Shown piece by piece: positions 2,342 through 60,515 of a stretch of DNA of 64,000 nt (its first letter is position 1; the number at the start of each line of letters is the position of its first letter). The notes under the pieces were generated by a model. The model had not been told where the DNA came from. It saw only the letters and a program-made list of their open reading frames with translations, and did not search any database. The stretch spans positions 70,714 through 134,713 of the forward strand of contig JAJDVI010000094.1 of NCBI GenBank assembly GCA_022826195.1. The letters run 5' to 3'. The stretch is from Acidobacteriota bacterium. Its GTDB lineage: Bacteria > Acidobacteriota > Vicinamibacteria > Marinacidobacterales > Marinacidobacteraceae. A program made the translations under genes and the position numbers.

Positions 2342-2354
2342 TGCGGGGACTTTA

Positions 2355-4948: not shown

Positions 4949-4960
4949 CGTCTTCGCTCC

Positions 4961-5758
4961 TCAACCTCCCGCACCGAGGCCGGGGATCGTGGCGCCGAGC
5001 GCGTGGAAGCCGCTGTCCACGTGCAGCACCTCGCCCGTGACCCCGCGCGCGGCGTCGGACAGCAGGAACGCCGCGGCATCCCCCACCTCCGTCGGATCGG
5101 TCCCGGCCCGGAGCGGCGCGTGTTCGCGGTAGTGCTCCACCATCTTGCCGATGCCCGCGACCCCCGAGGCGGCGAGCGTTTTCGCCGGGCCGGCCGAGAT
5201 GGCGTTCACCCGCACCCCCCGCGGCCCCAGGTCCGACGCCAGGTAGCGGACCGACGACTCGAGCGCCGCCTTCGCGACCCCCATCACGTTGTAGTGCGGC
5301 ACGGCGCGCTCGCCGCCCAGGTAACTGAGGGTGAGGGCCGAGCCGCCGCCGTCCGCCTCGAGCAGCGGCGCGAAGTGACGGACCAGCGCGGTGAGCGAAT
5401 AGACCGAGATGTCCTGCGCGACCCGGAATCCTTCGCGGGAGGTGGAAACGAAGTCGCCCTCGAGGTCCTCGCGCAGGGCGTAGGCGACGGCGTGGACCAG
5501 GAAGTCGAGCCCGCCGAAGTGCTCGCGGACCGTCTCGGCGGCGCTCGCCAGCTGCTCCTCGCTGGACACGTCGAGCGGCAGGGTCACGGTGCCCGGAATC
5601 TGCGCCGCGAGCTTGTCCACGTTGCGCTGGAGGCGCTCGTTCTGGAAGCTGAGCGCGAGCGCCGCGCCCTCGCGCGCCGCGGAGCGGGCGATCCCCCACG
5701 CGAAGGAGCGGTGGTTCGCGACCCCGACGATCAGTCCTCGTTTGTTCTCAAGCAGCAC
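4961..5758 (-). CDS. fabI: Enoyl-[acyl-carrier-protein] reductase (NADH)
   Basis: Typical FabI sequence throughout (GVANHRSFAW...SYLGGERAVPHYNVMGVAKAALE...ISAGPAKT). Confidence 0.9.
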   Translation of the reverse strand: MLLENKRGLIVGVANHRSFAWGIARSAAREGAALALSFQNERLQRNVDKLAAQIPGTVTLPLDVSSEEQLASAAETVREHFGGLDFLVHAVAYALREDLEGDFVSTSREGFRVAQDISVYSLTALVRHFAPLLEADGGGSALTLSYLGGERAVPHYNVMGVAKAALESSVRYLASDLGPRGVRVNAISAGPAKTLAASGVAGIGKMVEHYREHAPLRAGTDPTEVGDAAAFLLSDAARGVTGEVLHVDSGFHALGATIPGLGAGG

Positions 5759-5776
5759 TGTCCTGGAATTTAGCAG

Positions 5777-7339
5777 TCACCGCGGCGGTTCCACGGGCGG
5801 CTGCCGCATCGGGGTGGCGCCGCCCGCCTCCAGCCAGGCGGCGAGCCGGATGACGGAGAAGTCCCGCCCCGGGGCTCCGACGAGTTGCGCCCCGAGCGGC
5901 ATTCCGAGCGCGTCGAACCCGGCCGGGACCGAAAGGGCGGGAAGCCCCGCGAAGTTGAAGGGGCCGACCAGGCGGATGAGTCCCGGACGGATGTCCTCCG
6001 CGGTCGCGAGCGGCTCTCCCGCTCGCGGAGCGCCGGCCGGGGCGGACGGCGCCACCAGGACGTCCACGTCCTCGAAGAGTCGCTCGAACGCATCCGCGAC
6101 GACGCGCCGGCCCCGGAGTGCGGCGAGGAGGTCGGCGGCCGACAGCACCGTCCCCACTTCCAGGAGCCGCCGAACGTCCTCGCTGATGTCCTCCGGCCGG
6201 GCCGCCAGCCGCTCCCGGTGGACGACCGCCGCTTCCGCGAAGGCGAGCACGTTCCGGCACACCCCGCTGAGCTCGACCTCCGGAATCCTGACTTCGACGC
6301 ACTCCGCTCCCAACCGGACGAGCGCCGCGACGATGCCGTCCGCCGCCTCGCGGGCCTCCCGGATGAGGTCGGTGTAGAAGAAGTCGAGAGGGACCCCCAC
6401 CCTCACCCCCGCCAGCGGTCTTGGACCCGTGGCGCGCGGCGCCGGACCGGTGGGCCAGCCCGAGAGCACCTCGAAGAGACGGCCGATGTCCCCGGCGCTC
6501 CGGGCGATGGGCCCGACGTGGTCCAGGCTCCACGACAGCGGAGTCACGCCGGCCCGGGAGACAGCGCCGTAGGACGGCTTCAGGCCTAAGACCCCGTTGA
6601 GCGACGCCGGGATCCGGATGGACCCCCCGGTATCGGTGCCCACCGAGCCGTAGCCCATGCCGGTGGCCACCGCCACCGCGGACCCGGACGACGACCCGCC
6701 CGGGATGCGCGCCGGATCGTGCGGGTTCCGGGTCCTGCCGAAGGTCGGGTTGTCGCCGCTGACCCCGAACGCGAACTCCTGCAGGTTGTTCTTGCCGAGC
6801 AGAATGGCCCCGGCCTCGGAAAGGCGCCTCCAGGCCGGAGCGCTCCGGGCCGCCTCGTGCGGGAACCTCGACCCCGAGGTGGTGGTCATTCCGGCGACTT
6901 CCACGATGTCCTTGACGCTGAGGGGGACTCCGAGGAGCGCCGCTCCGCCGCTTTCCCCCTGCCCCTTCGCCTCTGGCGACCCGGTCAGGCGCCGCGCCTC
7001 CGCGAGCGCCTCTTCCTCCCGGAGCTTGAGGAACGCGCCGAGATGGCGCCCCGCCCGGGCGCGGTCGAGCGCCTCCTCGACCAGGTCCACGGCCGAGCGG
7101 CGTCCCGCGGCGAGGTCGGCGCGCGCGGCGGCGATCGTTCCCGGCGCGGGATCGGCCGGCGCCGCCGGGATCGGGGTTGACGCCCGGCGGCTCCTGCCGG
7201 AGCGGGCGCGGGCGGCCAGCTCACCGGCGGTGAGCGGCTCCGGAGGATCGGGAAGGCGGGCGAGCGCCCGGCCGACCTCTTCGAGTTCCTTCCGAAGGGC
7301 GCCGGCCCGTTCCTCGGCGGCGGCCAGCCGTTCCGACAT
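5777..7339 (-). CDS. Amidase-signature family protein
   Basis: Gly/Ser-rich amidase signature (GGSSSGSAVAVATG) and a Ser-cisSer-Lys triad context. Confidence 0.85.
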   Translation of the reverse strand: MSERLAAAEERAGALRKELEEVGRALARLPDPPEPLTAGELAARARSGRSRRASTPIPAAPADPAPGTIAAARADLAAGRRSAVDLVEEALDRARAGRHLGAFLKLREEEALAEARRLTGSPEAKGQGESGGAALLGVPLSVKDIVEVAGMTTTSGSRFPHEAARSAPAWRRLSEAGAILLGKNNLQEFAFGVSGDNPTFGRTRNPHDPARIPGGSSSGSAVAVATGMGYGSVGTDTGGSIRIPASLNGVLGLKPSYGAVSRAGVTPLSWSLDHVGPIARSAGDIGRLFEVLSGWPTGPAPRATGPRPLAGVRVGVPLDFFYTDLIREAREAADGIVAALVRLGAECVEVRIPEVELSGVCRNVLAFAEAAVVHRERLAARPEDISEDVRRLLEVGTVLSAADLLAALRGRRVVADAFERLFEDVDVLVAPSAPAGAPRAGEPLATAEDIRPGLIRLVGPFNFAGLPALSVPAGFDALGMPLGAQLVGAPGRDFSVIRLAAWLEAGGATPMRQPPVEPPR

Positions 7340-42326: not shown

Positions 42327-44450
42327 ATGCCTGACAAACGATCCAGGACGATCACCGCGTACGAGGAGAAACGGGATTTCGGACGGACACCCGAACCCCC
42401 CGCGGGAGGCGCGGCGGACGCCGGGCCGCCCGGAGGCCGCCGCTTCGTGGTTCACCGCCACGAGGCGCGCCGCCTCCACTACGACCTGAGGCTCGAGATG
42501 CACGGAGTCCTCCGTTCCTGGGCAGTCCCGCGAGGCTTTTCCTACGACCCCGAGGTGAAGAAGCTCGCGGTCCGGACCGAGGACCACCCGCTGGCCTACA
42601 CGCACTTCGAGGGGGTGATTCCCGAGGGCGAGTACGGCGGCGGCACCATGGGCATCTGGGACCGGGGTACCTACGAGATCACCGAAGGGGGCGAGGACCA
42701 GGGAGCCGCCGGCGTGGAAGCCGGGAAGCTCGTGATCCGGCTGGCCGGCCGCAAGCTGCGCGGGGCCTGGCACATGGTGAAGACGAAGCGGGGCCCGGAC
42801 GAATGGCTGCTGTTCAAGGGGCGCGACCGGTACGCGCGGGACGACGCCGAGCGGCAACCCTTCTTCGACCTGAAAGGCGCCAGGCCCTGGACCGGGGAAC
42901 CCGGCCCGGTCCCGGTGGTCCCCGACGGCGAGCGGGAGCCCTTCACCGACCAGGACTGGATCTTCGAGCCGCAACTCCAGGGCATTTCCGTCTTCCTCGA
43001 ACGCTCCGGGGCGGAGCTTCAGCTGACGCGCGGAGACGACGGAGCCCCGCTCGATCTGCCGGAGGTCGTGGCCGAGGCCGAAGCGGTTCGCGCGGAGGCG
43101 TTCCTCGCGGGCGGCACGCTCGTCAGCACGGACGAGGCGGAAAGGCCCTCACCCGAGCGCCTCGCGGCGCGGCTCGACGGCGATCCGTCGATCCCGGTCT
43201 CGCTCTACCTGAACGACCTGCTCCGCTACGAGGAATGGGACATCCGCGACGTCCCGCTGCTCGAACGGAAAGAACTGCTTTCGACCCTGCTGCCGCCGGG
43301 CAAGACCCTTCTCTTCGGGGACCACGTTGCCGTCCGCGGAGAGGAGTTCCACGCGGCCTGCGAGGCGGCGGGGCTGCCGGGGACCGTCGCGCGGCGCGGC
43401 GGCGCGGCCTATCCGGCGGCCGGGACTCCCCCCGGCGGGCCGGCCGCCCCTCCGGACTGCCTGCGCATCCCTGCCCGCGGTGCCCGAGCCCCGGACCCCT
43501 CCGAGCACCTCCTCGCGGGTCTCTCGCGCCAGCGGGCGGTGCGGGAATCCGCGCAGCCGCTCCACTTCACGAACCTCGACAAGGTGTTCTGGCCCGATCA
43601 CGGGTACACCAAGGGGGACCTGATCCGCTACTACGACCGGGTCGCCGAACACCTGCTCCCGTATCTGCATGAGCGGCCGTCGCACCTGCTCCGCTACCCC
43701 GACGGCGTGGGGGGCAAGGCCTTCTACCAGAAGGACCTGCCGGATCACACGCCGGACTGGATCGTCAGCGAAGAGATCCCTTCGGGACACCGGGGCGAGA
43801 CCATCCGCTACCTCGTCGTGAACGACGCGGCGGCGCTCCTCTACGCCGCGAACCTGGGCAGCATCGACATCCACCCCTGGCTCTCGCGCCGAACCCGCCG
43901 GGACACGCCCGACTGGGCGGTCTTCGACCTCGATCCCGGCGGCGGCCCGTTCAGCGACGTGATGCGTCTCGCCCGGGCGTTCGGCAAGGTGCTCCGCGGG
44001 ATCGGGCTCCGCCCCTACCTGAAGACCTCGGGCGCCACCGGACTGCACATCTACGTACCCCTGGAACCGGTGTATCCCTACGACGTGGTCCGGCAGTTCG
44101 CGGAGGCCGTCTCCACGCACGTCGCCGGCGAGCACCGGGACATCGCGACCGTCGAACGGACCACCTCCCGGCGGCGAGGACGCGTCTATCTCGACTTCCT
44201 GCAGAACCGGCGCGGACAGACCGTGGTCCCCCCGTACGCCGCCCGTCCCGTACCCGCGGCGTCGGTCTCGACCCCGCTGGATTGGGACGAACTCGACGCG
44301 GACCTCCATCCCGGGCGCTTCACCATCGCCAGCCTGCCCGAGCGGCTCGACCGGCTCGGGGACCTGTTCGCCGGCACCCTCCACGATCGCCAGCCGCTCC
44401 TCCCGGCGATCCGGAAGTTTCAGGAGCGCTATCTGCGCAAGTCAGACTGA
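42327..44450 (+). CDS. LigD-like NHEJ protein: 3'-phosphoesterase plus degenerate ligase remnant plus polymerase/primase
   Basis: The PE domain is RRFVVHRHEARRLHYDLRLE...WDRGTYEI. The Pol domain is HFTNLDKVFWP...YLVVNDAAALLYAANLGSIDIHPW...KTSGATGLHIYVPL. The middle region aligns to ligase motif I, but the catalytic Lys is replaced (EPQLQG instead of EIKxDGxR). Confidence 0.75.
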   Translation: MPDKRSRTITAYEEKRDFGRTPEPPAGGAADAGPPGGRRFVVHRHEARRLHYDLRLEMHGVLRSWAVPRGFSYDPEVKKLAVRTEDHPLAYTHFEGVIPEGEYGGGTMGIWDRGTYEITEGGEDQGAAGVEAGKLVIRLAGRKLRGAWHMVKTKRGPDEWLLFKGRDRYARDDAERQPFFDLKGARPWTGEPGPVPVVPDGEREPFTDQDWIFEPQLQGISVFLERSGAELQLTRGDDGAPLDLPEVVAEAEAVRAEAFLAGGTLVSTDEAERPSPERLAARLDGDPSIPVSLYLNDLLRYEEWDIRDVPLLERKELLSTLLPPGKTLLFGDHVAVRGEEFHAACEAAGLPGTVARRGGAAYPAAGTPPGGPAAPPDCLRIPARGARAPDPSEHLLAGLSRQRAVRESAQPLHFTNLDKVFWPDHGYTKGDLIRYYDRVAEHLLPYLHERPSHLLRYPDGVGGKAFYQKDLPDHTPDWIVSEEIPSGHRGETIRYLVVNDAAALLYAANLGSIDIHPWLSRRTRRDTPDWAVFDLDPGGGPFSDVMRLARAFGKVLRGIGLRPYLKTSGATGLHIYVPLEPVYPYDVVRQFAEAVSTHVAGEHRDIATVERTTSRRRGRVYLDFLQNRRGQTVVPPYAARPVPAASVSTPLDWDELDADLHPGRFTIASLPERLDRLGDLFAGTLHDRQPLLPAIRKFQERYLRKSD

Positions 44451-49657: not shown

Positions 49658-50851
49658 ATGAAATCCACGCGTCGCAGTTTCCTCAGTCTCGCGCCAGCCG
49701 GCGGCGGCAGCGCCGCTTCCCTCCATGCGATCAGCGCCCGGGGCCGGGAGGCCTGGGAAGCCGAGAACGGTTTCCGTGGCGCGCCGGTCTTCGTTCCGCC
49801 CCCCGAGGACGACGAAGTCCGGATCAGCAGCAACGAGAACCCTCTGGGTCCGGGCCCCTCCGCGGTGGCGGCGCTCCGCAGCGCCTACACCTCCATCATG
49901 CGCTATCCGATGAACGCCCAGATCAGCGGGACGGACCTCCGCGCGAAGATCGGGGAGATGTACGGGGCCAAGGCCGAGAACGTGACCCTTTCGGCCGGCT
50001 CCGGGGAGATCCTGCGGAACGCGGTCCGCGCCTACACCGGGCCGGACAAGGCGCTGGTCACCGCCGAGTGCTCCTACGAGAGCCCCGTCCGGACCGCCCG
50101 CTACTTCGGGGCTCCGGTCAAGGCCATCCCGATGAAGGGAGACCTCGGGCTCGATCTCGACAAGATGGCGGGCGCGGCGATCGGCGCCGGGCTCGTGTTT
50201 CTCTGCAACCCGAACAACCCCACCGGGACGGTGCATTCCATCGCCGACGTGACCGACTTCGTGCGGTTCGTCAAGAAGGAGTCGCCCTACACCGCCATCC
50301 TCCTCGACGAGGCCTACTACGACTACGTCGCCCACCCGGGCTTCGACACCGGCGCCCCGCTCGCCATGGAGTACCGTGACGTGTTCGTGGGGCGGACGTT
50401 CTCGAAGGCGTTCGGGATGGCCGGCCTCAGGATCGGCTACGGGTTCGGCCAGGCCGACACCATCGCGAAGATCGCGCCGCTGGCCCTCACGTTCGGCACT
50501 TCCGTGCTCTCCATCGCCGCGGCGATGGGGTCGCTCGAGGATCCGGACTACATCAAGAACGAGATCCAGCGGAACGAGGAAGCCCGCCGGTTCACCCACG
50601 ACTTCTTCTCGGGCCACGGCCTCGATCCGGTTCCCAGCAACACGAACTTCATCTTCGTGAACATCGGACGGCCGGCGAGCGAGTTCCGCGCCGCCTGCGC
50701 CGAGCGGGGCATCATGGTGGGGCGGGACTTCCCTCCCTACCAGGACACCCACGCCCGCATCTCGATCGGCACCCTCGAGGAGATGCAGCGCGCGACCGCG
50801 GTCTTCGCGGAAGTGCTCGGGCTCGCCACCGCCGATAACCAGCAGCAGTAA
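49658..50851 (+). CDS. Histidinol-phosphate aminotransferase-family (class I/II) PLP aminotransferase with Tat signal, paralog 1
   Basis: Tat motif KSTRRSFLSLAP and a HisC-like core (NENPLGP...LCNPNNPTG...SKAFGMAGLRIGY). Confidence 0.75.
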   Translation: MKSTRRSFLSLAPAGGGSAASLHAISARGREAWEAENGFRGAPVFVPPPEDDEVRISSNENPLGPGPSAVAALRSAYTSIMRYPMNAQISGTDLRAKIGEMYGAKAENVTLSAGSGEILRNAVRAYTGPDKALVTAECSYESPVRTARYFGAPVKAIPMKGDLGLDLDKMAGAAIGAGLVFLCNPNNPTGTVHSIADVTDFVRFVKKESPYTAILLDEAYYDYVAHPGFDTGAPLAMEYRDVFVGRTFSKAFGMAGLRIGYGFGQADTIAKIAPLALTFGTSVLSIAAAMGSLEDPDYIKNEIQRNEEARRFTHDFFSGHGLDPVPSNTNFIFVNIGRPASEFRAACAERGIMVGRDFPPYQDTHARISIGTLEEMQRATAVFAEVLGLATADNQQQ

Positions 50852-50896
50852 CCGCCGAAGAACCGCAATCCACCGCTACGAGGAGGTAGCCACCCC

Positions 50897-52072
50897 ATGC
50901 TCTCCCGCCGCAGTTTCCTGAGTCATGCCTCCGCCGGCGCCGCCGGCCTCTACGCCGCGACCTTCGTCCAGTCGCGACTCCGCGAGCAGTACGCGTTCGC
51001 CGCCCAGATGGGGATCGCCCCCGAAGAGGCGATCAACCTGGCGAACAACGAGAACTCGCTCGGCCCCGGCGAGTTCGTCATGGACGCTCTCGACTCGGTC
51101 ATCGGCCCCGAAGGCGTGATCGCCGGCCGCTATCCGTTCCGCTTCACCGGCCCGCTGCGGGAGGCGATCGCCGAGAAGTGGGGTGTGAAGACGGAGAACG
51201 TCCTCGTCGGCGCCGGCTCCACCCAGATCCTGGTGGACTGCACGCACCAGTACGCGAGCAAGGAGAAAGCGCTGGTCGGGTCCCTGCCGACCTACGAGGA
51301 ATGCTTCGGCTACGCGGCGCTGATGGGCTACCGGACCAAGGCGGTGCCGCTGACCGCCGACTTCAAGATGGATCTCGACCAGACGCTCCACGCCTGCAAG
51401 GGAAGCGGGATGCTGTTCTACTGCAACCCGAACAACCCGGTGGGGACGCTCGTGGACCCGTCCGAGGGCACGGATTTCCTGATGCGGGCGCTCGACGCCG
51501 AGAAGGACCTTCGCATCCTGGTGGATGAGGCCTACATCGACTACGTGACCACCCCCGGTCACGAGACGATGATCCCGGCGGCGATCCAGAACCCGCGCCT
51601 CATCGTGGCGCGCACCTTCTCGAAGGCCTACGGGATGGCCGGGCTGCGAGTCGGCTACGCGATCGCCCACGAGGACACCATCGCGGAACTCGACGAGTTC
51701 CACCTGGGCAACTCGGTCAGCACCCCGGCGCTGGTCGCCGCCAACGCCGCGCTCGAGCGCGACAAGGCGGACCCCGACTACCTCCCCAACGAGAAGAAGC
51801 GGAACGCCGAGGCGCGGGACTTCATCATCAAGTTCTTCGCCGACCGCGGCCTGAGCGCCACCGACGCCCAGACGAACTTCATCTTCGTGGACACCGGGAT
51901 GCCGATCGAGCAGTTCCAGGCGGCCTGCGCCGCGGAAGGCGTCCGCGTCGGGCGGCCCTTCCCGCCGCTGTGGACCCGCTGCCGCATCTCCATCGGCACG
52001 ATGGACGAGATGCAGCGCGGCGCCGCCAAGATGGCCACGGTCCTCGACGCCGCCCAGAAGCTGGCCGCGTAA
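50897..52072 (+). CDS. Histidinol-phosphate aminotransferase-family PLP aminotransferase with Tat signal, paralog 2
   Basis: Tat motif LSRRSFLSHASAGAAGLYA and a HisC-like core (NENSLGP...YCNPNNPVG...SKAYGMAGLRVGY). Confidence 0.75.
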   Translation: MLSRRSFLSHASAGAAGLYAATFVQSRLREQYAFAAQMGIAPEEAINLANNENSLGPGEFVMDALDSVIGPEGVIAGRYPFRFTGPLREAIAEKWGVKTENVLVGAGSTQILVDCTHQYASKEKALVGSLPTYEECFGYAALMGYRTKAVPLTADFKMDLDQTLHACKGSGMLFYCNPNNPVGTLVDPSEGTDFLMRALDAEKDLRILVDEAYIDYVTTPGHETMIPAAIQNPRLIVARTFSKAYGMAGLRVGYAIAHEDTIAELDEFHLGNSVSTPALVAANAALERDKADPDYLPNEKKRNAEARDFIIKFFADRGLSATDAQTNFIFVDTGMPIEQFQAACAAEGVRVGRPFPPLWTRCRISIGTMDEMQRGAAKMATVLDAAQKLAA

Positions 52073-52073
52073 C

Positions 52074-52125
52074 GGCCTGGAACGCCGGTCTCCAGACCGG
52101 CACCGCGGCGCTCCGCGCCGCGCAC
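52074..52125 (+). repeat. REP-like palindromic repeat copy (identical to the copy at 3283)
   Basis: Read directly; it follows the aminotransferase stop immediately. Confidence 0.8.
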
Positions 52126-52160
52126 GCCCTGAGGCCATCGGCGCCGGAAGGATCGATCCG

Positions 52161-52212
52161 TCGGCCTGGAGCGCCGGCTTCAGCCGGCACAGCGGCGGCG
52201 GAGCGCCGCGGG
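52161..52212 (+). repeat. Degenerate REP-like copy (GGCCTGGAGCGCCGGCTTCAGCCGGCACAGCGGCGGCGGAGCGCCGCGGGCG)
   Basis: About 70% identical to the consensus and in the same orientation; in tandem with the previous copy. Confidence 0.5.
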
Positions 52213-52292
52213 CGATTCATCGCCGCTTTCCCGCCGAGCCACTGGCAGGCGTAGTCCTCCCTCCCATACCCTGAACGGACAGGAGGCGACCC

Positions 52293-53762
52293 ATGCCCGT
52301 TCGAACCCCAACTGTCCTGATCCCGCTTCTCCTCGCAGCCACCTTCGCGGCCGCCCAGCCCGGCGTCCACACCTCCAGCAGCGGGGGCGAAGTGATGCGC
52401 CTCCTCCGGCGGGACAAGCTCGACCTGATCCTGCCGGGCGCCATGCGCGACAACGGCGTGGACATGTGGATCCACGTCACCCGGCACGGCGATCCCGACC
52501 CGATGGCCTACTGGTTCGGGAACACCTACGGCTACCTCGTCTTCACCGACGTCGGCGACCGGATCGAGCGGGCCGCCTTCGGGAGCGCCGGCGCGGTCCC
52601 GGACATCGACGTCCGCGGTTCCGACGATTTCGCCCGCACCATCTCCAGCTACGGCCGGGGGTACCAGATGGCCTTCAACTACGGCGACGAGGTCTACGAC
52701 GAGTTCACCGAGTTCGTCGCCGAGCGGGACCCGCAGACGATCGCCGTGAACACCTCCGAGTGGCTGGCCGAGGCGGACGGGTTGTCCCACACCTCCTACC
52801 TGAAGCTGGTGAAGATCCTGGGGCCCACCTACGCCGAGCGGATCGTCTCCGCGGAGAACGTCATCACTGACTTCCTGGTGCGGCGAACGGTGCGGGAGGT
52901 GGCCGAGCAGATCAACAACCTCGAGGCCGCCCGCCAGCTCACCCAGGAGGCCCTGGCCCGGATCGAGCCGGGACGCACCACGATCCGGGAGATCACCACC
53001 TGGGCCCGGGAGTGGGCGTACGAGCGGCACCTGGCCGGATTCAGCACCGGGGGGCGGGGCGGCATCCGCCTCTACTACACCGCGGTGTCCGAGGACCCGC
53101 CCTACCCGCCGGACGCCCGCTACTGGATCTGGCACGAGGACTACGTCTTCCAGCGCGGCGACTTCTTCGCCTTCAACGTCGGGGTCAACTACATGGGCTT
53201 CGGAACCGACACGAAGACCCACGCCTACATCCTGCGCGAGGGCGAGACCGCTCCTCCGGAGAGCATCCAGAAGCTCTTCGACCTCGCGATCGCCGGCCAG
53301 TGGATCATGCGGCCCCACATGCGCGTCGGTATGACCGCCAAGGAGTCACTCGACGCCATGGTCGCCGCCATGGAAGAGGCCGGCTACATCTACACGCCGT
53401 TCGTCAACTCCGGAATCCAGGGGATCGGCCGGACCCCCGACGGGGAAAGGAACCTCGACTACGTGATCGTCCAGGAGGGGCTCGGCGACGGCGACCAGCC
53501 GGGTTTCGCCATCGACCACCACGCCTACGGCACCGTCGGCACCGGGACCGTCGGTCCCTCGGTGACGAACTTCCGCGCCGACCGGCACCACCTGGTGATC
53601 CAGGAGAACCACCTCTTCGCGTACGAGTACATGGTGCACATGAACATCCCGGAACGGCCCGGATTCCCGCTGGCGATCAACATCTCGAACCCGCACGTGG
53701 TGACCAGCAAGGGCATCGAGTGGCTCCAGCCACCGAACGAGAAGATCTTCCTCATCAACTGA
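52293..53762 (+). CDS. M24-family metallopeptidase (creatinase/Xaa-Pro aminopeptidase-like), secreted
   Basis: Signal peptide followed by a Creatinase_N-like region and a pita-bread C-terminal domain. Confidence 0.65.
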   Translation: MPVRTPTVLIPLLLAATFAAAQPGVHTSSSGGEVMRLLRRDKLDLILPGAMRDNGVDMWIHVTRHGDPDPMAYWFGNTYGYLVFTDVGDRIERAAFGSAGAVPDIDVRGSDDFARTISSYGRGYQMAFNYGDEVYDEFTEFVAERDPQTIAVNTSEWLAEADGLSHTSYLKLVKILGPTYAERIVSAENVITDFLVRRTVREVAEQINNLEAARQLTQEALARIEPGRTTIREITTWAREWAYERHLAGFSTGGRGGIRLYYTAVSEDPPYPPDARYWIWHEDYVFQRGDFFAFNVGVNYMGFGTDTKTHAYILREGETAPPESIQKLFDLAIAGQWIMRPHMRVGMTAKESLDAMVAAMEEAGYIYTPFVNSGIQGIGRTPDGERNLDYVIVQEGLGDGDQPGFAIDHHAYGTVGTGTVGPSVTNFRADRHHLVIQENHLFAYEYMVHMNIPERPGFPLAINISNPHVVTSKGIEWLQPPNEKIFLIN

Positions 53763-53770
53763 CCGGGCGG

Positions 53771-54724
53771 TCAGCCGAGTTCCCCGAGCAGCCGCTCCCA
53801 GGCTTCGCGTTCGCGCTCGGGGGCGAAGAGCGCCGCCCGCGCCGCCTGGCGCCGCGCGAGGTCCCCGAGAAAACCGGGGTCCGTCTCCGCGCGCACCAGG
53901 AGGCCCCGGAGCGCCCCGGTATCTTCGGGCGGGAACGTGCCCGGGTGGTCCGGACCGAGGAGGCCGACGTTCCCCGGGATCCGGGAGGCGATGACCGGGA
54001 GCCCGGCGACCACCGCCTCCGACACGACGTTGGCGCCTCCCTCCGTCCGCGAGGAGATGACCATCGCGTGCGTCCGTTCGTAGAGGCGCCGCACGCGCGA
54101 GGCCGGCACTTCGCCGAGCCACCGGTAACGCGGGTTGCGCGCCATTTCACGGCGCGCGGCCGCCGCCCAGTCCGGGTCACGGGCGCCCCCGGCGTGGAGC
54201 ACCCGCAGACGCGACTCCGCCGGCAGCTCCCGCGCCGCGAAGGCCGCCCGCAGCGGGTCCTTCTCCCGGCGGAGGTGCCCGACGACGGACACGTCGAACG
54301 TCCGCTTCGAGGGGCGGCGCCCCCCGCTCCCGACGGCAACCGACTGGTGCACCACCCGCACCCTGGCGCGGAACTCCGGCGGCAGCGCTTCCCCGGCGAG
54401 GTCGTGCAACCCGACGAGCAGGTCGGCGCACTCGAGCGACCGGCGGGTGGTCTCCGGCTCCGTGTGCAGGAAGCCGTAGATGTCGGTCCCGGTGAGCGCC
54501 ACGATCAGCGGACGCGTGGGAAAACGATCCCGGAAACGTTGGATCGAAGCGGCGCTCCGCCAGGCGTGGAGGGCGATCAGCGCGTCCGCGGCGGCTCCGT
54601 CCCAGGCCGTCTGCACGGCCACCCGATGGCCGAGCGACCGCAGCACCGCCGCCCAGCGCCTCGCGGTGATCCGGTTCCCGAAGCGGGACCTCGGGCCCGC
54701 GGGGGTTACTAGAATGATTCGCAC
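53771..54724 (-). CDS. Small GT-B glycosyltransferase (GT4-like); SenB-like candidate
   Basis: The 317-aa product has a GT-B C-terminal nucleotide-sugar-binding region (ISSRTEGGANVVSEAVVAGLPVIAS). It is divergently paired with the EgtB/SenA homolog. Confidence 0.7.
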   Translation of the reverse strand: MRIILVTPAGPRSRFGNRITARRWAAVLRSLGHRVAVQTAWDGAAADALIALHAWRSAASIQRFRDRFPTRPLIVALTGTDIYGFLHTEPETTRRSLECADLLVGLHDLAGEALPPEFRARVRVVHQSVAVGSGGRRPSKRTFDVSVVGHLRREKDPLRAAFAARELPAESRLRVLHAGGARDPDWAAAARREMARNPRYRWLGEVPASRVRRLYERTHAMVISSRTEGGANVVSEAVVAGLPVIASRIPGNVGLLGPDHPGTFPPEDTGALRGLLVRAETDPGFLGDLARRQAARAALFAPEREREAWERLLGELG

Positions 54725-54744
54725 CGGCGAAACCCGCCGCCAGC

Positions 54745-56040
54745 ATGACCCAGCGTGTTCCGGCCGATCATCTCGCGGCCATCATGGAGGATGCCCACCG
54801 GCGCAGCATCGCGCTGACCAGCGGCCTCGACGAGCGCCAGTTGATGGGGCCGCGGATGTCCATCGTCAATCCGCTGCGGTGGGAGATCGGGCACGTCGCA
54901 TGGTTCTACGAGACCTTCATCCTTCGTGACCTCTACGGCGACGCAGCGATCCTTCCGCACGGCGACGAACTGTACGACTCGGCGGCCGTCCTCCAGGAGA
55001 CCCGCTGGGACCTGCCCCTCCTCGGGATGGACGAAACGGTCCGCTACGCCGAAACCGTCAAGGACCGCTGCCTGGAACGGCTGCCGCCGGGGACGGCGAG
55101 CGAGCGGGACAGCTTCATGTACCAGTTCGCCACCTTTCACGAGGACATGCACACCGAGGCGTACGTCTATTCCCGGCAGACCCTCGGCTACCCGGCGCCG
55201 CGGCTCGGCCGAAGTCCCGCCCGGGAACCGTCGGGCGATTGTCCCGGCGACGCCGGCGTACCGGGGGGGACCTTCCGCCTCGGAGCGGAACGGGACGCGC
55301 CCTTCCGCTACGACAACGAGAAGTGGGCGCATCCGGTGGACGTGCGGCCGTTCTCGATTGCGAAGGCGCCGGTCACGAACGCGGACTTCGCCGAGTTCGT
55401 GGACGCCGGGGGCTACCGGCGGCGGGAGTTCTGGAGCGAGGCGGGCTGGGACTGGCGAGAGCGGGCCGGGGCCTCGCATCCCGTCTACTGGCGCTCCGAC
55501 GGAGCGGACGCGTTCCGGGCGCGGCGCTTCGACGAGATCGCGCCGCTGCCGCCGAACGAACCGGTCATCCACGTCAACTGGTTCGAGGCGAACGCCTGGT
55601 GCGCCTGGGCCGGGCGCCGCCTCCCCACCGAGATCGAGTGGGAGGCCGCCGCCCTCGGGGAACCCGGCGGAGACCGGCTGGCCGCGACGAAGCGGACCTA
55701 CCCGTGGGGCGAGGCGCCTCCCGACCCGCGGCGCGCCAACCTCGACGGCTGGTCGCTCGGGTGCATCGAGGTGGGGGCGCTTCCCGACGGGGACAGCGCC
55801 TTCGGATGCCGGCAGATGCTCGGCAACGTCTGGGAATGGACGGCGGACACCTTCGAGCCGTTCCCGGGTTTCCGCCCCGACGCCTACCGGGACTACTCCG
55901 CGTCCCAGTTCCACCGGACAAAGGTCCTGCGCGGCGGCGCCTGGGCGACGCGCAGCCGGATGCTGACCGGCCGCTATCGCAACTTCTTCGGCCCGGAACG
56001 CCGCGACATCATGGCGGGGTTCCGGACCGTACGCGAGTAA
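54745..56040 (+). CDS. EgtB/SenA-family nonheme-iron sulfoxide/selenoxide synthase (DinB_2 plus FGE-sulfatase domains)
   Basis: The DinB-like N-terminus has His motifs (IGHVAWFYETF, FHEDMHTE). The FGE-like C-terminus contains ...HVNWFEANAWCAWAGRRLPTEIEWEAAA...GNVWEWT. Confidence 0.8.
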   Translation: MTQRVPADHLAAIMEDAHRRSIALTSGLDERQLMGPRMSIVNPLRWEIGHVAWFYETFILRDLYGDAAILPHGDELYDSAAVLQETRWDLPLLGMDETVRYAETVKDRCLERLPPGTASERDSFMYQFATFHEDMHTEAYVYSRQTLGYPAPRLGRSPAREPSGDCPGDAGVPGGTFRLGAERDAPFRYDNEKWAHPVDVRPFSIAKAPVTNADFAEFVDAGGYRRREFWSEAGWDWRERAGASHPVYWRSDGADAFRARRFDEIAPLPPNEPVIHVNWFEANAWCAWAGRRLPTEIEWEAAALGEPGGDRLAATKRTYPWGEAPPDPRRANLDGWSLGCIEVGALPDGDSAFGCRQMLGNVWEWTADTFEPFPGFRPDAYRDYSASQFHRTKVLRGGAWATRSRMLTGRYRNFFGPERRDIMAGFRTVRE

Positions 56041-56043
56041 GGG

Positions 56044-56484
56044 CTATTCGTCCGAGGCGCCCGGGTACACCCGCTCGCCCTCGTAGTCCCTGAGACCGCA
56101 GAAACCGACGACTTCGTATCCGTTCGCTTGTAGCAGCTCCGCGGCACGCGCGGCTCTTCCGCCACCCTGTCAAGCGGTGAGGACGGGGACTCCCGCCGGG
56201 AGCTCTCCCATCCTCGCCTCCAATTCGTCGATCGGAATGTGGACGAAGCCGTCGATCGTGCCGTGCTCGGCGAGTTCCTCGTCGGTACGGACGTCGAGCA
56301 GCACGGCGCCGTTCGCGAGCGCGGCGTCGATGTCCGCCGCCTCGACCCGCGGGGCCGGCTCGGGCGCCGCCGGTTCGGCTTCGGCAGCCGTGGTTTCCTC
56401 GGCCGGGGGTTCGCCGCCGCCGCAGCCCCAGCCAAGGACGGCTGCCGCGAGGGCGACGACGCCAAGTGAGAGTGCTCTCTTCAC
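56044..56484 (-). CDS. Single-domain rhodanese-like sulfurtransferase, exported, with in-frame TGA (predicted selenocysteine) at the catalytic Cys position
   Basis: Signal peptide/lipobox-like N-terminus (LGWGCGG). The rhodanese fold ...VLLDVRTDEELAEHGTIDGFVHIPIDEL...VPVLTA-[TGA]-QGGGRAARAAELLQANGYEVVGF aligns residue-for-residue with the GlpE active-site loop [26 protein letters not shown]. The frame stays open for 41 more codons to a TAG. Confidence 0.7.
56139..56154 (-). promoter_or_regulatory. Candidate SECIS-like hairpin 15 nt downstream of the in-frame UGA (mRNA GCCGCG-CGUGC-CGCGG)
   Basis: Read directly. An identical hairpin sits at the same 15-nt spacing in the second rhodanese paralog, and its loop contains G and U. 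Confidence 0.4.
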
Positions 56485-56504
56485 CGTGAACCTCCTGTTC
56501 AGAG

Positions 56505-56846
56505 TCAGTCGAGCGGGCGGTACTCCCGCGCGCCCGTATATTGCTTGAGGCCGCTGAAGCCCACAACCTCGAAACCGGCGTTCTCCAGAATCGCCGCGGC
56601 ACGCGCGGCCCGTGGTCCCACCATTCAGGTGGTCAGGACCGGACGATCCCGGGGCAGCTCGTCCAGCCGATCGGCCAGCTCTCCGAGGTGGATGTGGACC
56701 GCTCCGGGGATGGTCCCGGACTCGGCCAGTTCGAGGGCCGTGCGCACGTCGAGCAGGAGAACCTGCGCGTCGCTCAGCACCTCGTCGATCTGACCGGCGG
56801 CGACGAACGGCGCGCGCGTGCCGAGCGCGCGCCCCATCAGGCTCAT
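56505..56846 (-). CDS. Single-domain rhodanese-like sulfurtransferase, cytoplasmic, with in-frame TGA (predicted selenocysteine) at the catalytic Cys position
   Basis: ...VLLLDVRTALELAESGTIPGAVHIHLGEL...RPVLTT-[TGA]-MVGPRAARAAAILENAGFEVVGFSGL...; the frame continues 39 codons to a TGA. Confidence 0.7.
56593..56610 (-). promoter_or_regulatory. Candidate SECIS-like hairpin 15 nt downstream of the in-frame UGA (mRNA GCCGCG-CGUGC-CGCGGC)
   Basis: Read directly; a 6-bp stem with a 5-nt loop. Confidence 0.4.
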
Positions 56847-56929
56847 GGACCGAGCGTATCAGTCGGGGAGCCCGAGCCGCAGGGAAGTCGCTGGCTGGCT
56901 GTCTCGCTTCCCTGCGGCCGGCGCGCCGG

Positions 56930-59524
56930 TCACTCCCGCCCCATCGCGTGCGCTTCGGCGAGGAAGCCCTCGTAGATGGCGCGCGCCTCGTCGAACTGGG
57001 CGTAGACGTGAGCCTGCTCGGCTTCGGAACGCCAGAACTCCCATTCCTCGGCCATCTCCCGCAGCCGGTCGATCCAGCGGATCGAGTACTCGGCGGCCGC
57101 CGCGCTCCGCACCGGCTGGTCGCCGACCGTGACCCAGACCGGATTGGTGAACGCCTGGGCGTAGGCGCAGTCCAGCGGACGCCGCTCGTCGGGAGAACCC
57201 TCGGCCCGGAGCAGCAGCCAGCCGCTCCGGCCCACCGGGACCGTTCCCGTGGCCATCGCGGAACGCCGGTCCCCGGAGAGGGCGACCTCCGCCACGTCCT
57301 CGCCCCCGGAGACCACCCACGCCCGTTCGAGCGGGGTGGAGGAACGCACCCAGGCGCTCCATTCCACCTCGCCGCCGGACTCGGGAAGTTCCACGTCGTC
57401 GCCCGGGATCCGGCCGTTCACCCGGAAGTCCAGCAGGGGCCCGCAGCTCACGACCGCCCTGCCCTCCCGGATGCCCTCGAGGAAGGCGTCCAGATCGAGA
57501 CCCCGCTCTCCGGTGTGCACGTACGTGCGCACCGAACCCACGAGCTTGGAGCGCTGCATGTTGCTGATCGAGTCCTCGCCTCCCACCGCAGTCACCCGCA
57601 GACCGTTGTTCAGGGTGGCGTACCAGGGGAAGAACCCGGCCCGGGAGGCCGAGGACCACTCCACCGCGTCCGTTTCGCCGAGCGCCGCGTCCACCATGTA
57701 GCCCTTGGCCCCGCCGAGGGTCCCGGGAGTGCCGTCGGGAAAGACGAGGGGATCGTTCTCCCCGAAGAACGCGTGGACGTAGCCCACCGTCGCCCCCTGC
57801 GCCTTCGCCTTCCGGAACATGTCGGTGTTGGACGGGTAGAGGCTCTCGATCCCGGTGCCTTCATACCCCGTGGTGTAGGGGGAGATCAGGTGTTCCTCGA
57901 GTCCGAAATAGAAGACGTGGCCGTAGAACGGGGGCCGGTACTCCTGGCCCACGACCAGCGCCATGTCTTCGGTCGAGAGCGGGTGGGCGCCACCACCGGG
58001 AACGAAGTGCTGGTAGTCGAGAATCCGGTTGTCCTTGTTGGCGATCTGCTCGAGCACGACGTCCTGGTCCTCGGCGGCGGACATGAACATCAGGTTCTCC
58101 AGCGTGTTGTGGAGGTTGCCGGCGTAGTTCATGTGGACGTGGGTGGAGCCGCTCCACCAGCCCTTGGCCGCCATGTCGGTGATCCGGGGCAACCGGAGGG
58201 TCAGCTCGGCGACATCCCCCGCGGCGATCTCCAGGCTGGCGCTCACCGGCTCGTACTCGAACCCGCGCACCGCCTCGATCTCCAGGCCTCCCACCGGCAG
58301 CTCCATCCGGAAGCTCCCGGCCTGGTGGAAGGAGTGCTCCCCGGCCCCGCCGATCCGGGCGTAGGCGTCCGGCGGGGCGTAGAACCGTCCGTCGGCGGCC
58401 CGCAGGTGGATGCGCGACGCCACCTCCTCCCCCGTCGCGCCGTCCACGGTGCGTACCGAGAGCACGCCCATGGGCCGGCTCCAGTTGCGCCGGGTGATCT
58501 CCACGATGCGGCGCTTGCCGCCATACGTTTCGAGAAGCGCCAGTTGCGGCAGCCCGCCGGAGTTGTCGATGTAGGCGATCCACTCGCCGTCGGGAGACCA
58601 GCGGGGATGGAAGGCGTCGTGCTGGAAGAAGGTCAGCTTGTAGGGTGAGCCGCCGTCGGTCGGCTGCACGTAGAGGTTCGAGAACTGGTCGGCGGCGCCG
58701 GCGGTGGAGGAATAGATGAACCGCTTCCCGTCGATCGAGACGTCGGGCCGGGTCCGATAGAGCGACTGCTCCGCGAGCACCGTGACCCCCTCCTCGAAAC
58801 CCTGGACGGCGAGCGGCGTCCGCACCACGTTCCCGGAACCGAGCGGCACCTCGTGGTTCGAGACCATCAGCAGTTCCCGGGAGTCCGGCATCCAGGCCGG
58901 GGTGATGTGCATGTCCCAGGAGCCGAAGTAGAGCCGCTCGTTGCCGTAGTTCTCGTCCTGGGTCAGCGCCGTCTCCCCGGAGCCGAGCTCGCCGTCCGCG
59001 AACTCCCGGACGTAGACGTTGAAGTAGCCGGAGGGCTTCGTGGACACGTAGGCGAGACGGCTGCCGTCCGGCGAGAAGACGGGGTCGGTGTAAAGGAACT
59101 CGTCGCTCAGCAGCGTGCGGGTTTCCCCGGTGGCCACCTCGGTGATCGCGAGGCCGATGTTCTGGCCGTTCCGGTCCACCGTGAAGACGATGAAGCGCCC
59201 GTCCGGGGACCAGGTCGGCAGCGAGTGGTAGCCGGGACCCGCGGTGAGCTCGTCGGCGATCCCGGTTTCGGGATCCACGCGCCAGATCGAGCCGGACATG
59301 GCCACTGCGATGCTCTTCCCGTCGGGCGCCCACGCCGGCGCCCAGGGCGTGCTGCTGGGCGCCGGCGGGAAGTAGTAGTTGTGCATGTAGTTCCCGCCGT
59401 GGCGGGCGGGGGGATACGCCTCGGCGACCCCCTGGATGATGGGAGGCGGCGGCCAGCGCTGGGGTTGGGCGAAGAGCGGGGTGGCCGCCAGCAGGACGAG
59501 GACGAAGCTGAGAAGCAGGTGCAT
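56930..59524 (-). CDS. Secreted TolB-like beta-propeller protein fused to a PHP/CehA-McbA-like metallohydrolase domain
   Basis: Signal peptide MHLLLSFVLVLLAATPLFAQ, PD40/TolB-like repeats (WSPDG...), and a C-terminal domain with STHVHMNY...GYVHAFFGE His-rich motifs. The domain naming is tentative. Confidence 0.6.
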   Translation of the reverse strand: MHLLLSFVLVLLAATPLFAQPQRWPPPPIIQGVAEAYPPARHGGNYMHNYYFPPAPSSTPWAPAWAPDGKSIAVAMSGSIWRVDPETGIADELTAGPGYHSLPTWSPDGRFIVFTVDRNGQNIGLAITEVATGETRTLLSDEFLYTDPVFSPDGSRLAYVSTKPSGYFNVYVREFADGELGSGETALTQDENYGNERLYFGSWDMHITPAWMPDSRELLMVSNHEVPLGSGNVVRTPLAVQGFEEGVTVLAEQSLYRTRPDVSIDGKRFIYSSTAGAADQFSNLYVQPTDGGSPYKLTFFQHDAFHPRWSPDGEWIAYIDNSGGLPQLALLETYGGKRRIVEITRRNWSRPMGVLSVRTVDGATGEEVASRIHLRAADGRFYAPPDAYARIGGAGEHSFHQAGSFRMELPVGGLEIEAVRGFEYEPVSASLEIAAGDVAELTLRLPRITDMAAKGWWSGSTHVHMNYAGNLHNTLENLMFMSAAEDQDVVLEQIANKDNRILDYQHFVPGGGAHPLSTEDMALVVGQEYRPPFYGHVFYFGLEEHLISPYTTGYEGTGIESLYPSNTDMFRKAKAQGATVGYVHAFFGENDPLVFPDGTPGTLGGAKGYMVDAALGETDAVEWSSASRAGFFPWYATLNNGLRVTAVGGEDSISNMQRSKLVGSVRTYVHTGERGLDLDAFLEGIREGRAVVSCGPLLDFRVNGRIPGDDVELPESGGEVEWSAWVRSSTPLERAWVVSGGEDVAEVALSGDRRSAMATGTVPVGRSGWLLLRAEGSPDERRPLDCAYAQAFTNPVWVTVGDQPVRSAAAAEYSIRWIDRLREMAEEWEFWRSEAEQAHVYAQFDEARAIYEGFLAEAHAMGRE

Positions 59525-59602
59525 TGGATATTCCTCTCGGGGCGGCGATTCTACGGACCCGGTGACAAGTCCAGACCGGCCCACCACGGAGGCCCCTGGG
59601 GT

Positions 59603-59637: not shown

Positions 59638-60102
59638 ATGCGTTCCATTTCCGCCGGCAAATTCAAGGACACCTGCTTGAGAGTCCTGGACGAGGTCGCC
59701 GCGAACCGCGTGCCCGTGACGATCACCAAGTGGGGCCGTCCCGTCGCCCGGCTGCTCCCCTTGATCGGTCGGGCTCCCACCCGTGAGAGGACGGCGCCTG
59801 CCGCCACCGGCGTTGAGGAGACGGTTCAGCCCTACGGCTCGGACGCCGCCGCAGCGGCCCCCGAAGATGCGACCCAGCGGTTGCACCGGCTGGCGGGCGA
59901 ACTCGGCTTGTCGCCGGATGATCTGCTCCGAGAGGCGCTCGACGCCTACACCGGGGACAGCGCGATCGACGAACTCATCGAGCGCGCCAAGCGTCCCGTC
60001 GGGGCGTTCCGCTCCGGGCGGAGCGACCTCGCGGAAAAGCACGACGAGGCATGGGCGGAGATCCTGGAGGAGGAGATGGAGCGGTGGCGGTTACCCGAGT
60101 GA
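59638..60102 (+). CDS. Type II antitoxin, Phd/YefM-like N-terminus with a long acidic C-terminal extension
   Basis: The N-terminus MRSISAGKFKDTCLRVLDEVAANRVPVTITKWGRPVARLLPL matches a Phd/YefM fold. Its stop overlaps the vapC GTG start as GTGA. Confidence 0.7.
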   Translation: MRSISAGKFKDTCLRVLDEVAANRVPVTITKWGRPVARLLPLIGRAPTRERTAPAATGVEETVQPYGSDAAAAAPEDATQRLHRLAGELGLSPDDLLREALDAYTGDSAIDELIERAKRPVGAFRSGRSDLAEKHDEAWAEILEEEMERWRLPE

Positions 60103-60515
60103 CGACCCCCGTCTTCCTCGATACGTCGGCGTTCTACGCGCTGCTCGACGCCGAGCAACGGTTCCACGACCACGCGAAACGAACCTGGGACCGCCTGCTC
60201 TCCGGCGTTCGCCAGGCGCGACCCCGTTTGGTCACCCACCACGCCGTCGTGGTGGAAGCGAGCGTGCTCACGGCGCGGCGACTGGGCATGCACGCGGTCC
60301 GGGAACTCCACAACGGGCTGCTCCCCATCGCCGAAATCGTCTGGATCGACGAGAAACTGCATGCTCGCGCCACGGCGGCCATGTTCGCCGCCGGCCGGCG
60401 CAACGTCTCCCTCGTGGACTGGCTCTCCTTCGAGGTGATGCGCGAGCGCCGGATCCGGCACGCCTTCACCTACGACGGAGACTTCGCGAAACAGGGATTC
60501 CTGCCCGCGCCGTGA
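60099..60515 (+). CDS. vapC: PIN-domain toxin VapC
   Basis: PVFLDTSAFYALLD with conserved acidic residues of the PIN fold; about 138 aa. Confidence 0.7.
   Translation: MTTPVFLDTSAFYALLDAEQRFHDHAKRTWDRLLSGVRQARPRLVTHHAVVVEASVLTARRLGMHAVRELHNGLLPIAEIVWIDEKLHARATAAMFAAGRRNVSLVDWLSFEVMRERRIRHAFTYDGDFAKQGFLPAP

Follow-up and report, generated by a model that had tools for sequence, protein, structure and literature searches.

A probable two-gene selenoneine biosynthesis module beside predicted selenocysteine rhodanese genes in a Vicinamibacteria genome

Does a divergent gene pair in an acidobacterial genome direct the synthesis of selenoneine, or does it encode an ergothioneine enzyme that happens to lie next to an unrelated glycosyltransferase? 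Efforts to map the microbes that make selenoneine, a potent selenium antioxidant, are still under way. The pair occupies positions 53771 to 56040 of a 64-kb stretch of a metagenome contig from a member of the Vicinamibacteria (Acidobacteriota; contig JAJDVI010000094.1, positions 70,714 to 134,713), which is referred to here as the window. A first-pass annotation had identified a glycosyltransferase and an EgtB-like non-haem-iron enzyme and had proposed that they correspond to SenB and SenA of the selenoneine pathway, with a type II EgtB beside an unrelated glycosyltransferase as the alternative. The results described below bear out the first of these proposals and suggest that the locus is probably a two-gene selenoneine (sen) module.

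Both open reading frames (ORFs) were confirmed as called (Table 1) and are divergent, with 20 bp between their start codons. In this genome of ~70% GC, each had a GC content of 0.90 at third codon positions (GC3) and a coding-type codon-position GC pattern. The Pfam domains described in the first-pass annotation were recovered, with Glycos_transf_1/Glyco_trans_1_4 matches, of the GT-B fold, in the glycosyltransferase and DinB_2 plus FGE-sulfatase matches in the EgtB-like protein. Loci for comparison were gathered by a SenB-alignment scan of one genome per GTDB species, which returned 80 loci picked by similarity to the window SenB; comparisons of SenB took in 85 loci. The two genes were intact and syntenic in all Vicinamibacteria relatives, with SenB identities of 69-98%, and the pairing and gene order were conserved in every related Vicinamibacteria locus examined. 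Thus, senB and senA are not a chance pair of ORFs. Across the whole sample, a SenA/OvsA-like gene adjoined senB in 79 of the 85 loci, and in 77 of these 79 it lay on the opposite strand just upstream of senB. A promoter and terminator scan of positions 53500-57100 returned no match, a sigma-70-like search being uninformative for this phylum.

The glycosyltransferase was recognised by the NCBIfam model TIGR04348 (selenoneine biosynthesis selenosugar synthase SenB) with a score of 408.6 bits against an equivalog cutoff of 300, and residues 3-314 of the protein aligned to positions 1-309 of the 310 in the model. The next best NCBIfam model, a GT4 family, scored 124 bits against a cutoff of 400. 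Among solved structures searched with phmmer, the best matches were four Variovorax paradoxus SenB entries, 8jjn and 8fbx among them (E ~2e-59, ~42% identity). The residues whose roles have been assigned in the V. paradoxus enzyme (PMC11237966) were then located in the window protein. The catalytic lysine is present as Lys155 (V. paradoxus Lys158); Arg152, Asn17, His53 and Gly79 correspond to the phosphate/selenophosphate contacts Arg155, Asn20, His58 and Gly84; and the sugar contacts are kept as Gln127 (Gln131) and Glu228-Gly229-Gly230 (Glu-Gly-Gly). All of these residues were invariant in 85/85 aligned SenB sequences. The glycosyltransferase, which had been described as divergent within GT-B, can instead be classed as a standard, canonical TIGR04348/SenB member. 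By analogy with the V. paradoxus enzyme, we infer that it forms 1-seleno-sugars. Differences from V. paradoxus SenB were found at the uridine/ribose contacts (Arg22, His211, Thr214 and His235). Use of another sugar nucleotide was considered on this account and was rejected, as the same differences occur in most proteobacterial SenB proteins encoded next to senC.

The EgtB-like protein scored 489.4 bits with the NCBIfam model NF041186 (selenoneine synthase SenA; cutoff, 420) and 318.3 bits with the EgtB model TIGR03440, under the cutoff of 360. In V. paradoxus SenA, His71, His167 and His171 bind the metal, Tyr363 is catalytic, Phe397 replaces Asp416 of EgtB, and Asn63, Glu68 and Arg120 form the selenosugar side of the active site, as backed by mutagenesis; Tyr366, Asn395, Phe396 and Arg401 are also named (PMC11237966). 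The replacement of EgtB Asp416 by Phe in SenA had also been described in the original report of the pathway (bioRxiv 10.1101/2022.04.13.486033). All 12 of the 12 named residues are kept in the window protein. The iron triad aligns as His50, His132 and His136 and the catalytic tyrosine as Tyr381; the hercynine-binding residues are Tyr384, Asn413 and Phe414; the selenosugar contacts are Asn42, Glu47 and Arg87; and Phe415 and Arg419 align with Phe397 and Arg401, Phe415 standing at the site of EgtB Asp416. When the window protein was searched against 1.84 billion cluster representatives, proteins with the SenA motif dominated the top matches listed, and proteins with the motif of EgtB type I (EgtB-I) appeared only below ~285 bits.

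The gene pair therefore belongs to the same two enzyme families as the sen cluster (senA-senB-senC) of V. paradoxus and Amycolatopsis palatopharyngis (Kayrouz et al. 2022, bioRxiv 10.1101/2022.04.13.486033; structures 8jjn, 8fbx, 8k5i and 8ryz). It shares with V. paradoxus the catalytic lysine and the selenophosphate and sugar contacts of SenB, as well as the iron triad, the catalytic Tyr, the Tyr/Asn/Phe and Asn/Glu/Arg sets and the Phe in place of EgtB Asp416 in SenA. Unlike the V. paradoxus cluster, it has no senC within the 64 kb, carries Gln84 in place of SenA His117 and encodes a long form of SenA with additional residues 309-359. Identity between the two systems is ~36% for SenA and ~42% for SenB, and the host in this case is an acidobacterium.

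Placement of the EgtB-like protein in a tree, which had been suggested earlier as a check alongside the search with a SenB model, gave a concordant result. A simple distance tree (neighbour joining, no support values) was computed from 75 SenA-like sequences and rooted on the EgtB of Mycolicibacterium thermoresistibile. The Vicinamibacteria proteins formed a clade deep inside the radiation of SenA proteins encoded beside senB, apart from EgtB-I and OvsA. The sister group consisted of gammaproteobacterial SenA proteins (63-64% identity) from loci with senC and selA, and V. paradoxus SenA and OvsA fell on a separate, deeper branch. Collectively, the equivalog models, the active-site residues and the tree support the earlier reading of the pair as SenB and SenA of the selenoneine pathway.

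Several observations weigh against a selenoneine module of the known kind. First, in a raw phmmer search against solved structures, OvsA (301-311 bits) and EgtB-I (279 bits) both ranked above V. paradoxus SenA (229 bits, in two pieces), with EgtB-II, EgtB-IV and OvoA structures far lower. Second, window SenA has Gln84 at the position of EgtB Arg87, where V. paradoxus SenA has His117. Third, no selD/senC, egtD or selA turned up in the window or, at any of the Vicinamibacteria loci, at a distance of up to 10 kb from senB, so that both substrates would have to be supplied from elsewhere. With respect to the ranking, V. paradoxus SenA lacks a segment of ~50 residues, window SenA residues 309-359, that is present in EgtB, OvsA and nearly all sampled SenA-like proteins. 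Both the discordant ranking and the two-piece match arise because V. paradoxus SenA is a divergent short form without this segment. Overall identity of window SenA was ~36% to V. paradoxus SenA and 40% to OvsA or to M. thermoresistibile EgtB. Raw structure scores were rejected as a means of telling SenA, OvsA and EgtB apart after the residue-level and tree analyses.

The first rival explanation is that the EgtB-like protein is a Cys- or gamma-glutamylcysteine-dependent EgtB that makes ergothioneine, and that the adjacent GT4 glycosyltransferase is unrelated to it. M. thermoresistibile EgtB (EgtB-I; 4x8b/4x8d) has the DinB plus FGE-like fold, iron triad, catalytic Tyr and hercynine-binding Asn in common with window SenA, and its raw phmmer score exceeded that of V. 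paradoxus SenA. However, the window protein stayed under the EgtB model cutoff and passed that for SenA, and the thiol-binding pair of EgtB, Arg87 and Asp416, is replaced by Gln84 and Phe415. The Ser and Asp of EgtB are likewise replaced at Asn42 and Glu47, and EgtB-type representatives carry SDH-R-R..NWD, not NEH..NFF. The genomic context also differs from that of EgtB-I in that egtA, egtC, egtD and egtE are missing from it, while the glycosyltransferase passes the SenB equivalog cutoff, falls far short of the nearest GT4 model and is paired with a SenA-like gene in the great majority of SenB loci. Model scores, residues and tree thus contradict an ergothioneine-type EgtB with an unrelated glycosyltransferase, including the type II EgtB put forward in the first-pass annotation, and such an arrangement is extremely unlikely.

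The second rival explanation is that the protein is an OvsA-type 5-selenohistidine synthase and that the locus makes ovoselenol, not selenoneine. OvsA of the ovs cluster (Halomonas utahensis, Marinobacter; PDB 8u41, 8u42, 8ux5) has the same fold as SenA and uses the same SenB-made selenosugar donor. It was the best-scoring solved structure, and the lack of a nearby egtD is shared with most ovs organisms (bioRxiv 10.1101/2024.04.10.588772). Unlike window SenA, which has Tyr384/Asn413/Phe414 at these sites, OvsA binds histidine through Met401/Gln430/Ala431 and selenylates C5; exchange of the three OvsA residues for Tyr/Asn/Phe gives a SenA-like enzyme that uses hercynine and selenylates C2 (bioRxiv 10.1101/2024.04.10.588772). 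The top structure match of window SenA, and the higher of the OvsA scores, was to this OvsA-YNF mutant engineered to act like SenA. HMQAY, the motif of OvsA, occurred in a single sampled locus (L069), whose protein branched with OvsA far from the window clade. No OvsM-like methyltransferase was present among the window genes annotated by Pfam/NCBIfam, no search aimed at OvsM having been made, and only 11 of the 85 sen loci have egtD at up to 10 kb from senB in any case. Synthesis of ovoselenol by this locus is therefore a very remote prospect. The product of 54745-56040 is assigned as SenA of the hercynine type, with the SenA motif and not the OvsA motif.

Gln84 remains the most conspicuous deviation of window SenA from the characterised enzyme. 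It was fixed in 11/11 Vicinamibacteria sequences, as compared with His in 68/68 other SenA/OvsA-like proteins in which the column was present, and the original survey of 500 sequences had reported His at the EgtB Arg87 position "in all SenA proteins" (bioRxiv 10.1101/2022.04.13.486033). The Arg of EgtB is lost at this position in window SenA as well. A change from His to Gln might mark a shift in the selenium or sulfur donor, to another selenosugar, a thiosugar or another carrier, so that the product or its precursor would be non-canonical. Such a shift would accord with the fixation of Gln84 in one lineage and with its location at the position of the thiol-donor-binding Arg87 of EgtB. However, the Asn, Glu and Arg that mutagenesis has shown to matter for SeGlcNAc use are all kept, Gln and His are both polar and hydrogen-bonding, and the partner SenB is wholly canonical. 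In addition, a few SenA-like cluster representatives carry Asn, Arg or Ala at the same position, and His can therefore be regarded as a conserved signature of SenA and not a defining feature. A donor shift thus appears very unlikely, and Gln84 is best described as a lineage-specific variant of SenA at a predicted donor-site position.

As the first-pass annotation had noted, the window contains neither selD/senC nor an egtD partner for the EgtB-like gene. Searches by tblastn found no match to SelD/SenC, EgtD or SelA anywhere in the 64 kb. The locus therefore has two sen genes only and departs from the canonical senA-senB-senC cluster of three. Among loci with at least 5 kb of sequence on both sides, a SelD domain was encoded within 10 kb of senB in 38/45 loci from outside the Vicinamibacteria and in 0/6 from the Vicinamibacteria. 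SenC in the sampled loci is a 755-aa fusion of an FAD-oxidoreductase with SelD, encoded mostly just downstream of senB. In the published survey, egtB and selD both lay within 5 kb of only 827 of 2,353 TIGR04348 genes, forming a complete three-gene cassette (bioRxiv 10.1101/2022.04.13.486033). Since this survey and the sampled loci, 7/45 of the fully flanked loci outside the Vicinamibacteria being without a nearby selD, show other cases, senAB without senC is a minority arrangement that is not new.

Without senC and egtD in the window, both selenophosphate and hercynine would have to be made by enzymes encoded elsewhere. For hercynine, the ergothioneine pathway is the usual source (bioRxiv 10.1101/2022.04.13.486033). 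An extra selD paralog is not required for the pathway, because any SelD can supply selenophosphate, and the conserved decoding of selenocysteine (Sec) in two neighbouring genes, described below, implies that selD is present in the genome. Selenophosphate would most likely be made by the housekeeping SelD that is needed anyway for selenoproteins. In the chemistry carried over from the V. paradoxus enzymes, SenB would act as an inverting GT-B enzyme that needs no metal and relies on Lys155 for catalysis, converting selenophosphate and a UDP-sugar (the characterised enzyme takes UDP-GlcNAc or UDP-Glc) to a 1-seleno-beta-D-sugar. SenA would then use Fe(II), held by His50, His132 and His136, together with O2 and Tyr381 to join the selenosugar to C2 of hercynine, binding hercynine through Asn413, Phe414 and Tyr384 and the selenosugar through Asn42, Glu47 and Arg87. 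The resulting selenoxide would eliminate the sugar, and reduction would yield selenoneine.

The distribution of close relatives points to the origin of the pair. The closest loci were those of Vicinamibacteria metagenome-assembled genomes, with SenB identities of 94% (OZ220713.1), 85% (OY821641.1) and 75% (OZ219816.1), and all other scan matches were from Proteobacteria, at identities of at most 64%. The nearest relatives outside the Acidobacteriota were ten senA-senB-senC(-selA) loci from gammaproteobacteria that are uncultured (SenA ~63-64%, SenB ~60%). These have the divergent senA/senB arrangement and the NEH..YYNFFR motif in common with the window, but carry His where the window protein has Gln. 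They also encode the 755-aa SelD fusion (SenC) downstream of senB and have selA beside senA, both of which are missing from the window. The presence of selA together with the SelD-fusion SenC in these loci points to a single SelD that supplies the synthesis of both selenocysteine and selenoneine in these organisms. The senAB pair was probably acquired by a sublineage of Vicinamibacteria through horizontal transfer from Proteobacteria, the direction of transfer being read from a sample picked by similarity to the window SenB.

Immediately downstream of senA, and convergent with it, lie two short rhodanese genes (Rhd1 and Rhd2; Table 1). Both ORFs end in an in-frame TGA precisely where the CxxGxR motif has its catalytic Cys, so that read-through would give UxxGxR, and the Pfam Rhodanese model aligned across the TGA in each. 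The TGA was kept in both paralogues in 14 related genomes, and the protein sequence past it was conserved. The full-length identity of Rhd2 across relatives, with the 39 residues past the TGA counted in, was 70-98%. In Cys-type homologues from L046, L060 and L061, the codon aligned with the TGA is TGC or TGT (those of L046 and L061 are 39% identical to Rhd2). Nearly all close homologues among the database matches listed for Rhd2 were of 70-77 aa and ended at the TGA codon; several longer matches, of at most 56% identity, covered 77-88% of the query and presumably extend past the Sec position. Public records annotate Rhd1 and Rhd2 as truncated hypothetical or rhodanese-like proteins of 104 aa and 73 aa, respectively.

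Synonymous sites past the TGA were also unusually well conserved. Third-codon positions were invariant in 11/12 codons after the TGA of Rhd1 versus 17/54 elsewhere (p=1.7e-4), and in 3/11 codons after that of Rhd2 versus 1/58 elsewhere (p=0.011). Within this stretch of codons, the two genes have a common hairpin, GCCGCG-CGUGC-CGCGG(C), 16-32 nt past the UGA and with G and U in its loop. Its folding energy was no better than that of shuffled sequences (z ~0), a measure that is uninformative in 70% GC sequence, and its stem never varies, hence the lack of covariation. In scans of the window, no Rfam family reached the gathering threshold and ARAGORN detected no tRNA, and therefore no tRNA-Sec. 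Reassignment of TGA throughout the genome was rejected as an explanation, since 27 of the 36 window genes end with this codon. Rhodanese-like selenoproteins with a UxxG motif were first reported from the Sargasso Sea (PMC1088965) and have been described as "forms 2 and 4" (PMC13188914). Rhd1 and Rhd2 resemble them in being single-domain proteins with Sec at the catalytic Cys in UxxGxR, a likeness at the level of the motif, and differ in forming a tandem pair of which one member has a probable lipoprotein signal. They fell outside the NF041203 family (rhodanese_LYCAU; 24 bits versus a cutoff of 115). Rhd1 is a probable exported lipoprotein, since it shows features typical of such proteins, namely a hydrophobic segment at the N terminus, a conserved Cys and a linker rich in Gly, Pro, Glu and Ala. 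Collectively, these data make it very probable that Rhd1 and Rhd2 are selenoproteins, of the UxxG rhodanese type already known, and they uphold the earlier statement that the organism uses selenophosphate. Both genes should be re-annotated with Sec read-through.

The proximity of senAB to two selenoprotein genes raises a further rival explanation, in which all four genes form one selenium module and the rhodaneses act as carriers or reductants of selenium, perhaps by way of a perselenide on Sec. In such a role they might pass selenide to SelD or restore oxidised selenoneine to its reduced form, and so make up for the absent senC. The rhodaneses directly adjoin senA in every Vicinamibacteria genome with senAB, and two selenium traits would be unlikely to adjoin by chance if selenoprotein genes are few. 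The only hint of this kind from elsewhere is a gene for a metallo-beta-lactamase (MBL)-fold protein fused to two rhodanese domains, directly after senC and on the same strand, in two Thiohalophilus loci. The proteins concerned, encoded at 4617-6038 (minus strand) of L046 and 1592-2953 (minus strand) of L061, are of 453-473 aa, are persulfide-dioxygenase-like in their MBL-fold part and are encoded on the same strand as both senA and senC.

Against such a module, three more distant relatives (L088, L089 and L090; Rhd2 identity 70-74% by tblastn) keep the rhodanese pair without senA or senB within 7 kb. In these genomes, the pair has the same TGA and hairpin and lies next to rpmB/M14 or next to two aminotransferase genes. 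Moreover, the whole region of ~20 kb is syntenic in the genomes with senAB, including ilvC, an M14 peptidase gene, rpmB, a TolB/CehA gene, two aminotransferase genes, DUF2911, a GWxTD protein gene and murB. Because this neighbourhood is conserved throughout, the adjacency of the rhodaneses to senA carries no extra weight. The rhodanese genes converge on senA, 3 bp separating the stop codons of senA and Rhd1, and have the same orientation as the TolB/CehA gene upstream of them. Sequence features suggest export as a lipoprotein for Rhd1 and a cytoplasmic location for SenA and SenB, and a rhodanese was encoded within 10 kb of senB in only 3/74 loci outside the Vicinamibacteria. A joint module of senAB and both rhodaneses is thus unlikely. 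A functional link between rhodaneses and senAB was rejected as the leading reading, given the occurrence of the pair without nearby senAB in L088-L090. The earlier suggestion that the rhodaneses traffic selenium or sulfur for the cluster fares no better, as the pair occurs apart from senAB in distant relatives and is convergent to senA.

We concluded that the rhodanese pair is the older resident of the region and that senAB was gained, or retained, beside it in the sublineage. Functional coupling between the rhodaneses and senAB is unsupported and unlikely. A narrower version would hold that the sublineage took only senA and senB, probably from Proteobacteria, beside resident Sec-rhodaneses that were recruited as selenium-supply or redox partners, with the change from His to Gln as an adaptation to the altered supply. 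In this event, which we regard as unlikely, the rhodaneses might supply the housekeeping SelD with selenide or regenerate selenoneine from its oxidised form. The stretch from the aminotransferase pair to rpmB was also seen to be a rearrangement hot spot when L088, L089 and L090 were compared with window positions 49658-59587. The orientation of the rhodanese pair with respect to the aminotransferases is inverted, some of the genomes have an amidohydrolase gene and others do not, L086 has two insertion sequence (IS) elements, and senAB and an M24-like gene occur in the sublineage only.

The locus is a known system with an already characterised pathway, and the understanding of that pathway is unchanged by it. 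The family has thousands of members. At NCBI, members of the 90%-identity cluster of window SenA are already named "selenoneine synthase SenA [Acidobacteriota bacterium]", and a protein 85% identical to window SenB is already named SenB. The first-pass description of the cluster as the most unusual accessory module of the window was therefore overstated. Mildly new are the two-gene form in Vicinamibacteria, the fixed His-to-Gln change and the unannotated Sec-rhodanese pair next door. With this locus, the Vicinamibacteria, acidobacteria that are abundant but uncultured, join the likely producers of selenoneine. Their minimal two-gene form of the pathway would depend on a SelD from another part of the genome, probably the housekeeping enzyme. 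A genome-mining rule that demands senC beside senAB would miss such loci.

Table 1. Features of the senB-senA locus and of the adjoining rhodanese genes (positions in the window)
Feature	Positions	Strand	Basis and remarks
senB, predicted selenosugar synthase, TIGR04348 family, GT-B fold, 317 aa	53771-54724	-	NCBIfam, phmmer, residues
Divergent intergenic spacer, 20 bp, between the senB and senA start codons	54725-54744	.	ORF coordinates
senA, predicted non-haem-iron selenoxide (selenoneine) synthase, DinB_2 + FGE-sulfatase fold, 431 aa	54745-56040	+	NCBIfam, residues, neighbour-joining tree
Predicted Sec-rhodanese 1 (Rhd1), 146 aa, UGA at 56170-56172, probable lipoprotein, hairpin resembling a selenocysteine insertion sequence (SECIS-like) at ~56138-56154	56044-56484	-	Pfam, comparative; neighbour, outside the sen pathway on present evidence
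Predicted Sec-rhodanese 2 (Rhd2), 113 aa, UGA at 56625-56627, without signal peptide, SECIS-like hairpin at ~56593-56609	56505-56846	-	Pfam, comparative; neighbour, outside the sen pathway on present evidence

On the other side of the pair, the gene at 52293-53762 (plus strand) is convergent to senB across an 8-bp gap. Its 489-aa product has a signal-like segment at the N terminus, matches Peptidase_M24 only weakly and in part, and was assigned to no NCBIfam family. This gene is probably outside the pathway, because one relative that has senAB (L087) does not carry it. Directly upstream of the rhodanese pair and on the same strand, 56930-59587 (minus strand) encodes an 885-aa protein in which a TolB-like PD40 beta-propeller is fused to a metallohydrolase domain of the CehA/McbA family.

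Farther out, 42327-44450 (plus strand) encodes a LigD-type non-homologous end-joining protein with clear phosphoesterase and primase-polymerase domains and a weak ligase-domain match (residues ~203-362). Tandem HisC/PtaA-like class I/II aminotransferases are encoded at 49658-50851 and 50897-52072 (both plus strand), and lie beside a DUF2911 gene and a gene for a GWxTD-TPR protein in all relatives. Both aminotransferases begin with twin-arginine-like signals (MKSTRRSFLSL... and MLSRRSFLSH...), suggesting periplasmic export. Between the TolB/CehA gene and rpmB, 59638-60515 (plus strand) encodes a Phd/YefM antitoxin and a PIN-domain toxin, and the toxin-antitoxin content at this site varies among relatives.

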